From Chiloscyllium plagiosum (Eukaryota), in assembly GCF_004010195.1 (NCBI RefSeq), contig NC_057719.1, positions 28,629,153 through 28,692,026 of the forward strand: a DNA stretch of 62,874 nucleotides, given 5' to 3'. The position numbers and the translations under genes were made by a program. Below the pieces are notes generated by a model, which saw only the letters and a program-made list of their open reading frames with translations, ran no database searches and had not been told where the DNA came from. This document shows, one piece after another, positions 31,310 to 36,628 of the stretch; the first letter of the stretch is position 1; the number at the start of each line of letters is the position of its first letter.

Positions 31310-32204
31310 GTGATACAACAGACCTCCTAACAGCCAGCAGGAGATAGAGGGACAGGTACGTAGACAGATTATGGAAAGCTGTAAAAACAACAGGTAGGTG
31401 TAATGGGTAATTTTAACTTTCCCAAATCAATAGGAACTCTTTTAGCACCAGGTGTTTACAGAGGAACTTTGATTATCCGGCATTCGATTAACCAAATTTT
31501 GGATGATCTGAGTAACATGGCAAGGTCCCGATGTGTGGCTAACTATGTTATCTGGCATCGATTATCCAGCATTCAATTAACTGAATGAAATACTGCCCGC
31601 CCGCGTCCTGCAGAAAATCGAGATCCCTCCCTTTCTATTATGGTCTAGGAACAATTGGTTACCAATTGATGCAATCAAGATTTAAAGTAGATGGGATAGA
31701 ATCTGTTAGGTGCATCCAGGAGATTTTCTTAAAATAACACATAGATAGTCTAACGAGGGAAGGGTCATACTAAATATTGCATTGGGGAAGGAATTTGGCC
31801 AGATGATCAAAGTTTCAGAGGGGGAGAAATTTGGGAATAGTGATCATAATTCCTTTTCAGATTCTCATGGAAATGCATAAGGATAGACCTCGTGTGAAAG
31901 TGCTAAATTGGGGAAAGTTTATTACAATAGCAGTAGGAGGGAACCAGAGAAATTAGATTGGGGGCAGGGGGAAGAGCTGTTTATATGAAAATATAGGTGG
32001 TCTGATTACCAAGTTTGTAAACAACATGCAAATTGGAGGAGTTGTGGACAGTGAGGAAGACTGTCAAAGTTTAGTTGAAAAACTGGGTGGAGAAATGGTA
32101 GGTGGAGTTTAATCTGGACAAGCGTGAGGTGATGTACTTTACGAGGTCAAATGCAAGAGATAAGTAGACAGTAAATGGAAGGAGGCTTAGGATGTATTAA
32201 GGGA
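31310..32204 (+). mobile_element. Old CR1 LINE, 5' part (continues about 38800-38856 and 39377-39940)
   Basis: MGNFNFP (GDFN variant), FGNSDHNS, KVLNWGK, KFVNNMQIGGVVDSEED; the RT C-terminus resumes after the nested inserts. Confidence 0.75.
31459..31630. mobile_element. Second copy of the Tc1/mariner MITE, opposite orientation, right TIR damaged
   Basis: TA-cagaggaactttgattatccggcattcgattaacc...; internal sequence is the reverse complement of 29380-29538. Confidence 0.8.
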
Positions 32205-33146
32205 TAGAGTCATAGAGATGTACAGCACGGAAACAGACCCTTTGGTCCAACCCGTCCATGCCGACCACACATCCCAATCCAATCTAGTCCCACCGGCCAG
32301 CACCCGGCCCATATCCCTCCAAACCCTTCCTAATCATATAACCATCCAAATGCCTCCAAATCCAAATCCAAATGTATAACATTGATATACAGTTAAATCT
32401 TAAATAAATGATAACCAAAATCTATCAAACAAGAAAACAGAAATACCAAGAGATAAAATAAAGGACAAAAATTCAACTAACTACTCATCTAACTTACAAC
32501 TAACCAGAGTGTATCATTAAAATTCTTACATTGTTCAAGAGAAAATAAAAATCCAACGGATAACACATAAATTGAGCAGTGATATACACGCTCGGAATGT
32601 GTTAACATCAGATCACAACAAACCCGTATTTATCCAAAACAGCCCGAGCATAGAGCATATAAAATTCACAAAAATAAAAGCTCTTTAGTACATTCAGATC
32701 AATATAATGAAAAAAAAACCATTTCTAAATAGTAAAAAAAAGTATAAAACGTATTTAAATGGAGATCTTCCCCCTTATTCCCAGGGGGCATCACTTCCTT
32801 TCCAAAAAAACCCATCATAACCTCTCCCAAACAGTGCTCCACCCTTGACCCAGGCACCCCACGATAAGATAAAGAAAATTCAAGTATACTACTGAACTAG
32901 AACTAACAGTGAGTACCCTATCCCCCACCACACCCCCACCCACACCAACACCTGCATATATTTGGTAATGTTAATACCATATACGAACATATATGACTAT
33001 AAAATTACAGTCTCAGCAAATAATAATTAAATTTTGTTATATTAATACAAAATAACAGGGGAAAGCAACCCCACTCTCAAGGATAAAGAAAAAATAAGAT
33101 AAGGTAGCCACCTTCGCCCCATCTACATTAATTAGACCCCTTGGCC

Positions 33147-33147
<1 letters not shown>

Positions 33148-33178
<31 letters not shown>

Positions 33179-33182
33179 TATA
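33148..33182. repeat. (TA)n microsatellite; poly-G tract nearby at 33295-33309
   Basis: Directly visible. Confidence 0.95.
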
Positions 33183-33340
33183 AAAAAGGGGGGAAAGGAA
33201 ATTATTAAGTAAAGGATGAATAAATAATCCCTTCTTCCCACTCCCCGGAGATAATATTAAATAGTAAGATAGTGAAAGGAAAAAAAAAACGGTTGGGGGG
33301 GGGGGGGGGTAGACCGGGGTGGGGGTAGGGCAAAACAACA

Positions 33341-34186
33341 TCAATTAACTCTTATAGTTTGTCTAAGAGAGTCCAAAAGTTCCTTGGCCTTCTCTGGTGA
33401 TCCGAAGTTAAACACGGACCCTTCATGGCTAAAGCGTAGTATAGCTGGGTAGCGCAAGGAGTATTGAATGTTTAAATCCCTTAAACACTTCTTTGCTTCA
33501 TCAAACGCCTTCCTCTTTCAAACCAAAGCTAGGGAAAAGTCCTGAAATAACTTAATCTTTATGAGTCATGGCTTGTGGATCTTTCCCAAGATTTCTGGAG
33601 GCTTCCAAAAGCATCTGCCTCACCTTATAGCTCTGCAGCCGGAACAGGACTGGGCGGCGGCACTGGTTCAAGCCAGGCCCGCGTATTGCGACCTGGTAAG
33701 CCCGTTCCAACCTTACCTGGCCTGATCCAGCCTTCAGATTCAATAACTGCGGAAACCACTGTTCAAGGAACCTTGTAAACTGGCCTTCTTCTTCCCATTC
33801 GGGAAGGCCCAGCAAACGAATATTTTTTCGACGACCTCGATTCTCGAGGTTGTCAATGTGATTCTCTAAGGTCCGGACTTGCTGCTCGAGAGTCCGGACC
33901 CGATCCACGGCTGATTCTGCAATGGCCTCGGAGGTCGTGGCCTTTAGCTCCGCCCCTCCGACACGGCATTCAATTTCTTCGATGTCTCGGCCATACTTCG
34001 GGACTCTTCGATGAAAGCATCGATCTTCACGTCGAATTTGGAGATTATTTCCACGAGGCTCGCCACCGTAGGTAAGTCCCCCGGGGCGGCTGCGGACGCC
34101 CCAGCTGTAGCTGGGGAGGGTGGGGGAGGGGCTCCTATCTGCTGAGAGCTCCGGGCTCCTTTCTCCCCCCCCCCCCACCGAGTCAT
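33341..34186 (-). pseudogene. L1-type ORF1p (coiled coil, RRM, CTD; Transposase_22-like) with two frameshifts and one TGA
   Basis: Heptad region VRTLEQQVRTLENHIDNLENRGRRKNIRLLGLPE, LERAYQV, RPVLFRLQSYKVRQMLL, then KIKLFQDFSLALV*KRKAFDEAKK..YSLRYPAILRF..FGSPEKAKELL. Confidence 0.9.
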
Positions 34187-36628
34187 TTTTACAGGAGACT
34201 GAACTACATAAATTTAGTACTAAACCACTAATTACATTAAATAAAAACTATTTTTAGTTGATTTGGTGAGTGTGGTGGGGGAGGGTGGCCCACTTTGCCT
34301 AGGCCTTGGGAGGAGCACTATAGACTCAGACTTGCTGAGTCACCGCCATCTTGGATCTCCCAAATGCCTCTTAAATGTTGCAATTGTTCCAGCCTCCATC
34401 ACTTCCTCTGGCAGCTCATTCCATAAACATACCACCCTGTGTGTGAAACGATTGCCCCTTAGGTCTCTTTTATATCTTTCCCCTCTCACCCTAAACCTAT
34501 GCCCTATAGTTCTGGACTCCCCGACCCCAGGAAAAAGACTTTGTCTGACCATGCCCCTCATAATTTTGTAAAATAAGGTTACTCCTCAGCCTCCGACACT
34601 CCAGGGAAAACAGCCCCAGCTTGTTCAGCCTTTCCCTATAGCTCAGATCCTTCAATGCTGGTTACATCCTTGTAAATCTTTTCTGAACCCTTTCAAGTTT
34701 CACAACATCTTTCCGATAGGAAGGAGACGAGAATTGCAAGCAATATTCCAATAGTGGCCTAACCAATGTCCTGTACAACCACAACCAATGACCTCCCAAC
34801 TCCTATACTCAATATTCTAACCAATAAAAGAAAGCAGATCAAACCACTGCCTTCACTATCCTATCTACCTGCAATTCCACTTTCAAGGAGCTATGAACCT
34901 GCACTCCAAGGTCTCTTTGTTCAGCAACACTCCCTAAGACCTTACCATTAAGTGTATAAGTCCTGCTAAGATTTGCTTCCCCAACATACAGCACCTCGCA
35001 TTTATCTGAATTAAACTTCATCTGCCACTTCTCAGTCCACTGGCCCATCTGCCCCAGATCCTGAGGTAACCCTCTTCACTTTCCACTACACCTCCAACTT
35101 TGGTGTTATCTGCAAACTTACTAACTGTACTTCTTATGCTCGCATCCAAATCATTTATGTAAATGACAAAAGGTAGAGGACCCAGCACTCCGCTGGTCAC
35201 AGGCCTCCAGTCTGAAAAACAACCCTCCACCTCGACCCTCTGTCTTCTACCTTTGAGCCAGTTCTGTATCCAAATGGCTAATTCTTCCTATATTCCATGA
35301 GATCTAACCTTGCTAATCAGTCTCCCATGAGGAAGCTTGTCGAATACCTTACTGAGGTCCATATAGATCACATCTACTGCTCTGCTTTCATCAATCCTCT
35401 TTGTCACTTCCTCAAAAAACTCAATCAAGTTTGTGAGACATGATTTTCCATGCACAAAGCTATATTGACTATCCCGAATCAGTCCTTGCCTTTCCAAATA
35501 TGCGTACAGCCTGTCCCTCAGGATTCTCTCCAATAACTTGCCCACCATCAACGTCAGGCTCACTGGTCTATAGTTCCCTGGCTTGTCCTTACCACTTCTT
35601 AAACAGTGGCACGTTAGCCAACCTCCTGTCTTCCAGCATCTCACCTGTGACTATCGATGGTACAAATATCTCAGCGAGGCCCAGCAATCACATCTCTAGC
35701 TTCCCACAGAGTTCTAGGGTACACCTGATCAGGTCCTGGGGATTTATCCACCTTTATGTGTTTCCAGACATCCAGCACTTCCTCCTCTGTAATATGGACA
35801 TTTTGAAAGGTGTCACCATCTATTTCCCTGCAGTCTTTATCTTCCATACCCATTTACACAGTAAATACTGACGCAACATACTCGTTTAGTATCTCTCCCA
35901 TTTTCTACAGCCCCACACAAAGGCCGCCTTGCTGATCTTTGAGGGGCCCTATTTTCTCCAGGTTACCCTTTTGTCCTTAACGTATTTGTACAAACACTTT
36001 GGATTCTCCTTAATTCTATTTGCCAAAGCTATCTCATGTCCTCTTTTTGCCCTCCAGATTTCCCTCTTAAGTATACTCCTACTTCCTTTATTCTCTTCTA
36101 AAGATTCACTCGTTCTATCCTGTCTATACCTTACATATGCTTCCTTCTTTTTCTTACCAAACACTCAATTTCTTTAGTCATCCAGCATTCCCTATACCTA
36201 CCAGTCTTCCCTTTCACCCTCACAGGAATATACTTTCTCTGGATTCTCGTTATCTCATCTCTGAAGGCTTCCCACTTTCCAGCCGTCCTTTTACCTGCGG
36301 ACATCTGCGTCCAATCAGTTTTCAAAAGTTCTTGTCTAATACCGTCAAAATTGGCCTTTCTCCAATTTAGAACTTCAACTTTTAGATCTGGTCTATCCTT
36401 TTCCATCACTATTAAGGTCGCTGACCCCAAAGTGCTCCCCCAATGACACCTCAGTCACACTGCCCTGCCTTATTTCCCAAGAGTAGATCAAGTTTTGCAC
36501 TTTTTCTAGTAAGGCCATTTACATACTGAATCAGAAAATTTTCTTGTACAGACTTAAAAAATTCCTCTCCATTCTAAACCCTTAACACTATGGCAGTCCC
36601 AGTCTATGTTTGGATAGTTAAAATCCCC

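Follow-up and report, generated by a model that had tools for sequence, protein, structure and literature searches.

The stretch of DNA analysed here (the window) covers 62,874 nucleotides of the Chiloscyllium plagiosum genome and contains a minus-strand L1-type element inserted into the 3′ end of a resident LINE, which we take to be CR1-type (Table 1). The initial annotation of the locus had described an insertion that splits a LINE 3′ end and is flanked by an exact 11-bp target-site duplication (TSD). The repeat is present as described, and joining the two flanks with one repeat copy yields an unbroken 3′ end of the host LINE, which can be aligned to other host copies. The element begins at position 34359 with the letters GAGATCCAAGATGGCG, followed by a 173-nt 5′ UTR that runs to the ORF1 start codon at 34186, both as annotated. 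The YY1-type motif placed at the element's very start was likewise recovered, an identical start being found in 38 of 44 related 2.0-kb copies.

Table 1. Features of the window insert and its host LINE (positions counted from the first letter of the window).
Feature	Position	Strand	Remarks
TSD, 5′ copy, GAGGCATTTGG	34360..34370	-	TTTAA just before it, an L1-endonuclease-type site; compare target sites of sister copies
5′ UTR, 173 nt	34187..34359	-	YY1-type motif CAAGATGGC at 34353-34345; putative internal promoter
L1 ORF1 (coiled coil, RRM and CTD by homology)	33341..34186	-	broken in the window copy by two frameshifting deletions
Inter-ORF spacer of parent L1, 710 nt, 41% T	32631..33340	-	cut ~45 nt upstream of the parent ORF2 start codon
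Family-wide deletion junction, GGATA/AATACGGG	32630..32631	-	spacer fused to parent 3′ UTR; 85 places, control 0
Parent L1 3′ UTR, 257 nt retained	32374..32630	-	final ~40-70 nt and A-tail absent from the window copy only
Filler, 17 nt, ATTTGG repeats resembling the target site	32357..32373	-	not in the sister copies shown; likely repair scar
TSD, 3′ copy	32346..32356	-	exact repeat of the 5′ copy
Host LINE, upstream part, RT-bearing	34371..35650, reaching further	-	RVT_1 E=4e-12 at 35288-35650; empty-site alignment
Host LINE 3′ end, resuming past the insert	32200..32345	-	empty-site alignment

ORF1 of the window copy is broken, in agreement with the initial annotation of a full-length but disrupted ORF1p. 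The frame ends at 33341 and carries a 12-nt G-run insertion at 34174 and two frameshifting deletions, one of ~34 nt near 33990 and one of 8 nt at 33559. An intact relative matches human L1 ORF1p (PDB 2ykp; E=6e-9, residues 104-282); Pfam returned weak coiled-coil matches only. Among named proteins the closest are those of Chiloscyllium punctatum and Hemiscyllium ocellatum, in keeping with a shark host. The ~985 nt downstream of ORF1 had been described as T-rich non-coding sequence devoid of endonuclease (APE) and RT motifs. The window copy indeed holds no piece of ORF2, but this region is a composite of two parent L1 parts, 710 nt of spacer and 257 nt of 3′ UTR, joined at 32631/32630. We read the locus as a dead member of a multi-copy L1 family that has ORF1 alone.

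A search of the genome with the ORF1 protein gave 8157 candidates, of which 150 were scored, and 20 loci were inspected at 10 kb. Most of these span ORF1, stretches of N and the end of ORF2. Endonuclease and RT pieces were found at two loci (L076 and L077; Pfam endonuclease and RVT_1), and the best PDB match of the parent endonuclease is human L1 ORF2p (E=1e-26). Placement in the L1 clade is based on the ORF1p and ORF2p matches. The parent element is ~6 kb long and consists of a 5′ UTR, ORF1, a spacer of ~750 nt, an endonuclease/RT ORF2 and a 3′ UTR. Laid on this parent, the 2.0-kb element falls into two blocks, one extending from the 5′ end to ~45 nt before the ORF2 start and the other lying in the 3′ UTR.

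Searching the shark's own genome with the element produced 60 matches from 40 scored of 3628 candidates, and most of the best 30 align over almost the entire query, with identities of 83-90%. Sister copies share the start motif, continue 40-70 nt beyond the point where the window copy stops and then end in an A-tail. The initial annotation had called the window element complete and without poly(A); neither description holds for the family, as the window copy is clipped at its 3′ end and the loss of the tail is local to it. Pattern searches of the same genome with up to 1 mismatch located the 2.0-kb junction in at least 85 places, the junction of a related 2.5-kb form in at least 80 and the unjoined site in 495, with 0 for the control in each case; these counts include a few tandem repeats within a single locus and do not reach diverged copies. 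In the 3′ UTR, a motif belonging to the short lineage occurs in 178 places.

The copies have A-tails and L1-type target duplications at their ends. Among 44 copies of the 2.0-kb form (24 best matches and 20 picked by junction, a sample leaning to full length), the 5′ motif is found in the 38 mentioned above, including 16 of the 20 picked by junction, and a tail motif in 35, 23 with AATAAA and 12 with a shorter end lacking it. Four of the nine 'no tail' calls are motif misses, with tails seen by eye. Target duplications flank 25 of the 31 copies with both ends; they measure 10-18 bp, and most begin with AA preceded by T (T/AA sites). The 2.5-kb copies have a tail motif in 37 of 43 cases and a target duplication in 20 of 30, and the target sites of short copies resemble those of ORF2-bearing copies. 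Both short forms have been amplified with A-tails and L1-type target duplications, gaining shared changes of their own. The initial annotation had proposed a non-autonomous ORF1-only family and had made this depend on other copies not running past 32357 into an ORF2. None of the 44 2.0-kb copies continues into ORF2 beyond the junction; together with the single junction at 85 places and the grouping of the short forms in one clade (see below), this upholds the proposal.

At the 2.0-kb joint the 2.5-kb copies carry ~500 extra bases: the last part of the spacer, 162 nt from the beginning of ORF2, ~235 nt of out-of-frame sequence from its end, and the first part of the 3′ UTR. The first deletion, which took out ~3.4-3.5 kb bounded by two GGG triplets, generated this form with its dead ORF2 stubs. 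The second removed ~495 nt, stubs included, from a late lineage of 2.5-kb copies and gave the 2.0-kb form. The joint it left sits between two similar motifs and has neither GT nor AG. Both deletions may stem from microhomology, through template switching or DNA repair.

The order of these events is recorded in the copies. A set of 150 loci was aligned to one 2.5-kb copy, and 130 entered a first tree, leaving out 3 unclassified loci and 17 with fewer than 1100 columns. Diagnostic columns comprise 79 that are common to both short forms as against ORF2-bearing copies, 21 specific to the 2.0-kb form and 2 that group the 2.0-kb form with ORF2-bearing copies. The 21 bases specific to the 2.0-kb form build up stepwise within the 2.5-kb form, whose copies have between 0 and 17 of them, and the tree is a ladder leading from ORF2-bearing to 2.5-kb to 2.0-kb copies. 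The short forms make one clade with an SH-aLRT of 88 in a tree of 50 rows and of 93 in one of 62 rows that includes the closest ORF2-bearing relatives, all of which lie outside the clade. The initial annotation had suggested an ORF1p tree against autonomous L1s; in the trees built here the short forms stand apart from the ORF2-bearing copies. The 2.0-kb clade is not clean, as two 2.5-kb copies (L021 and L134) fall among its members. One row labelled P in the 62-row tree (L248) belongs to the 2.5-kb form and has undergone an additional deletion. Copies lie at a median of 4.2% (2.0-kb), 5.6% (2.5-kb) and 6.8% (ORF2-bearing) from the majority sequence of their group. The window copy lies 4.4% from its group majority and 13-21% from ORF2-bearing copies, and belongs to the latest group of the tree, which contains the short-tailed copies.

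Selection on ORF1 was assessed by a counting test rather than a branch model: variants common to several copies were attributed to source elements and singletons to decay after insertion, with CpG changes removed. In ORF1 of the 2.5-kb form, shared variants comprise 34 synonymous and 19 nonsynonymous changes, as against 125 and 325 for singletons (ratio 0.21, p=4e-7; 0.18 at a stricter threshold). The ratio is 0.30 for both short forms together (p=2e-9) and 0.11-0.15 for ORF1 of ORF2-bearing copies. For the 2.0-kb form alone it is 0.43 (p=0.026), 0.45 (p=0.12) and 0.27 (p=0.018) for variants found in 4, 6 and 8 copies, respectively. The ORF2 stubs served as a control. In ORF2-bearing copies this region has a ratio of 0.09-0.14 (p=4e-7 at 0.14); in 2.5-kb copies the ratio is 0.44-0.53 (p=0.08-0.24), which is not 1 and differs from that of ORF1 in the same copies (p=0.01-0.02). 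A single stop codon in the ORF2 stub is common to 22 of 35 scored 2.5-kb copies and to 0 of 33 ORF2-bearing copies. The spacer of the short forms displays no constraint, its shared-to-singleton ratio being 0.11-0.14 vs 0.15 at ORF1 four-fold sites, and spacer, UTRs and stubs all change at the rate of those sites.

Shared ORF1 changes are thus biased towards synonymous ones, without a fixed stop or frameshift, and in each group the majority sequence has an open ORF1 free of common stops and indels. ORF1 stayed under purifying selection after the loss of ORF2 in the 2.5-kb form, and the signal is weaker and threshold-dependent in the 2.0-kb form. The dN/dS check proposed in the initial annotation, run here as the counting test, gives a significant result for the 2.5-kb copies and one significant at two of three thresholds for the 2.0-kb copies. 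In the 2.0-kb form the parent ORF1 stop codon has become a Gln codon, making the frame six residues longer. No live source copy was seen, since ORF1 frames of at least 270 residues occur in just 1 of 42 2.0-kb and 0 of 36 2.5-kb copies.

Several other histories could be imagined for such elements. An ordinary L1 might have been primed internally in its long inter-ORF spacer, the alternative raised in the initial annotation, or polyadenylated early there. The window copy has no tail and the fish-type L1s described in the available text of PMC5381506 have long T-rich spacers, as such an origin would suggest, but the last 257 nt of the element are parent 3′ UTR from past ORF2. Because spacer and true 3′ UTR together make up the T-rich 985 nt, internal priming and early polyadenylation in the spacer are ruled out, and neither AATAAA nor ATTAAA occurs in the spacer for the latter. 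A one-off deletion is contradicted by a junction common to 85 places, so that these explanations taken together are vanishingly improbable. A separate matter, concerning this copy only, is how its tail was lost. The 3′ end at 32374 stops short of the usual A-tail, by ~40 nt when compared with the short-tail form and by 65-70 nt when compared with the long-tail form. The tail would have been removed by a later deletion that was repaired with templated filler. Loss during insertion, by internal priming or aberrant joining, or an assembly error is the less probable course. In its favour, the TSD is exact and clean, and L1 products that lack a tail yet have duplications are on record (PMC5322556, in the part available). 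Internal priming requires the element end to match the start of the duplication, whereas the window element ends in TATAC and the duplication starts with GAGG; a tailless internally primed retrocopy was rejected on this primer complementarity, examined at the window copy. Moreover, the filler reproduces sequence from the target's far end, and the 3′ duplicate lacks the two A's with which it should begin.

Splicing could in principle account for the first deletion, as the 2.5-kb junction would fit a GT...AG intron given a founder with CAG at the right breakpoint: the product ACGACAGG/GAAGAG (slash, joint) is the exact outcome of a GT donor and a CAG acceptor, and CAG stands at the breakpoint in 21 copies, including one close to the short clade (L184). 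The usual state at this breakpoint is CGG, found in 99 places genome-wide vs the 21 with CAG, in 24 vs 4 of 35 sampled copies and in 7 of the 9 closest ORF2-bearing relatives (CAG in 2 of 9), and the CAG state fits CpG decay. With CGG, the breakpoints share a 3-nt GGG microhomology, which makes a microhomology deletion the likelier event. The donor is also weak (GTGGAT), a single junction in a single clade speaks against repeated splicing, and the second junction has no splice signals. A spliced L1 retrocopy was accordingly discarded, as the ends of the deleted parts lack GT...AG at the second joint and show AG at the first only in the minority, CpG-decayed state; splicing is an unlikely origin of the first deletion. 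A different challenge concerns the selection on ORF1, which may have acted in a still-evolving autonomous L1 that shed the short copies repeatedly as deleted RNAs or cDNAs. This would explain the constraint without any advantage in cis, and ORF2-bearing copies with the same spacer-end motif do exist: the motif of the 2.5-kb form occurs in 46 places, and ORF2 is still present in 7 of 30 examined. Of nine such ORF2-bearing copies, all seven with enough columns for the tree fall outside and basal to the short clade. The junctions are identical, the ORF2-stub stop described above is confined to the 2.5-kb side of the comparison, and a pattern search for unjoined ORF2 downstream of a later base of the lineage found 0 places. 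Repeated shedding is therefore very improbable, and a hidden co-evolving autonomous source is unlikely as judged from the 69 ORF2-bearing loci sampled, although many such loci have N stretches.

The 2.0-kb form probably extends beyond this genome. Contigs bridging the 2.0-kb joint by at least 31 bases on each side were found in runs of three coded organisms, A (X1), C (X10) and D (X15, guessed to be RNA), and among the matches listed there is no bridging contig from organism B. No run contains more than 0.42 of the window copy's words. The form is therefore likely older than the split of several related species, although the codes are silent on how distinct these are. In one single-cell RNA run (X21), 64 reads fall on a 131-nt junction stretch; 16 of these continue into unjoined sequence, and no read is shown to span the junction. 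A further run (X22) has 0 reads on the stretch. The listed runs that hold the element include no RNA record.

By its features the element is a shark HAL1 (half-L1), all features of this class that could be tested being present. It is L1-derived, has ORF1 only, is multi-copy with one structure, and ends in an A-tail with an L1-type TSD (the tail being absent from the window copy itself). ORF1 was kept functional in source copies, as judged from the lack of a majority stop or frameshift and from ratios of 0.18-0.21 for 2.5-kb copies and 0.27-0.45 for 2.0-kb copies, where only some thresholds give significance. The primary HAL1 paper is reportedly that of Bao and Jurka in 2010. As far as the available parts of the later literature go, HAL1, including rat RNHAL1, is placed in mammals (PMC5753468, PMC2241872, PMC5322556, PMC5786205), and the success of rat HAL1 is attributed to ORF1p binding its own RNA (PMC2241872). 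With the mammalian elements as described there, the shark family shares its L1 derivation, ORF1 as sole frame, a retained 5′ promoter end, A-tail and TSD, multiple copies, ORF2 deletion and dependence on L1 enzymes. It differs from them in its shark host, in its parent, a fish-type L1 whose 5′ UTR is short and whose long spacer persists in the derivative, and in the survival of parent, amplified 2.5-kb intermediate and final form in one shark genome.

The parent matches the fish/frog-type L1 layout given in the accessible text of PMC5381506 (5′ UTR of ~0.16 kb, spacer of 257-1032 bp that is T-rich in fish, AATAAA and A-tail), from which the shark short forms differ in lacking ORF2. The YY1 start motif, described there for mammalian L1, stands at the start of this shark L1; that text makes no mention of HAL1, non-autonomous elements or sharks. 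According to the available portion of PMC5786205, bipartite LINEs that keep ORF1 include HeT-A (Jockey clade) and Ag-Sponge (CR1 clade), which follow the same strategy of retaining both ends and ORF1 while losing ORF2, in other LINE clades and other hosts. The engineered human construct ORF1mneoI, an L1 5′ UTR and ORF1 RNA like that of the shark family, requires functional ORF1p and ORF2p in trans in cells (PMC11260458, as far as available); the shark family, in contrast, is natural and has an evolutionary record. No case of HAL1 in sharks was found in the published literature as available, and an entry in Repbase or Dfam is possible. The shark family is notable for a preserved series of its origin and for measured constraint on ORF1.

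Taken together, the window copy very probably belongs to a multi-copy, ORF1-only family that arose from an L1 resident in the shark by two nested ORF2 deletions and whose source copies likely made their own ORF1p and borrowed ORF2p from intact L1s. Source copies would have been transcribed from their 5′ UTR into a polyadenylated RNA of ~2 kb. This RNA may have been coated by its own ORF1p, and such binding in cis would be the reason for keeping ORF1. The coated RNA would then have captured ORF2p supplied in trans by intact L1s, and mobilisation by L1 ORF2p is suggested by target sites like those of ORF2-bearing copies. The balance of evidence leans towards a half-L1 origin independent of that in mammals with its whole birth on record, namely a single-source lineage, two deletions, an altered 3′ end, ORF1 under selection and a parent lineage diverged by 13-21%.

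With parent, intermediate and end form side by side, one can ask cleanly which parts a hitch-hiking RNA has to retain: ORF1 shows constraint, while neither the ORF2 stubs nor the spacer does. The annotation of shark repeats is affected as well, for such copies would pass as broken L1s. If the independent origin is true, the family would provide natural evidence that ORF1p made in cis helps an RNA to capture another element's ORF2p, and half-LINEs may recur in cartilaginous fish rather than be a mammalian oddity.

In the 2.0-kb form, the ORF1-only L1 derivative to which the window insert belongs, a Gln codon replaces the stop codon that ends ORF1 in the parent L1, and ORF1 is thereby six residues longer. 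The latest 2.0-kb copies terminate ∼25 nt short of the 3′ ends of the other 2.0-kb copies and have lost the AATAAA signal; A-tails and target-site duplications are nonetheless present. In the genomic copy L017 the 3′ 330 nt is tandemly repeated and adjoins an N stretch, and in the copy L018 the A-tail is reached ∼170 nt early.

An internal motif served to select ORF2-bearing (parent-type) and 2.5-kb copies (loci from L171–L210 and L111–L170), and complete 5′ ends are common among them, the YY1-type start motif being present in 30/40 of each group. The motif used for this selection is located ∼1.9 kb downstream of the element start, so these counts tell little about short truncated copies. The 2.0-kb copy L159 is inserted in another repeat at a target resembling that of the window copy, with the duplication GGCATTTGGA; the likeness is probably due to chance, since host repeats are abundant.

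Judged by their residues, the long open frames of the window look like pieces of other LINEs, and no host exon was recognised among them.

Locations of ORF1-end, 3′-end and open-frame features
Feature	Location	Basis
Stop-to-Gln change and ORF1 extension	window 33341-33361; also 2.0-kb copies	
Short-ended, AATAAA-less 2.0-kb copies	L002, L003, L004, L008, L013, L016, L029, L030, L158, L159, L168, L170	
Long open frame	window 45-1244	residues
Long open frame	window 2975-3415	residues
Long open frame	window 24228-25508	residues
Long open frame	window 37324-38132	residues

The 3′ two-thirds of the inter-ORF spacer looks constrained in ORF2-bearing copies: shared/singleton variants stood at 0.18-0.22, versus 0.51 at ORF1 four-fold sites (p=0.002-0.012, with fewer rows than for ORF1). 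The same comparison revealed no such constraint on this region in the short forms (2.0-kb and 2.5-kb). Constraint on the ORF2-bearing spacer would be in keeping with a function in translating ORF2, for example through an IRES of the kind that PMC5381506 predicts.
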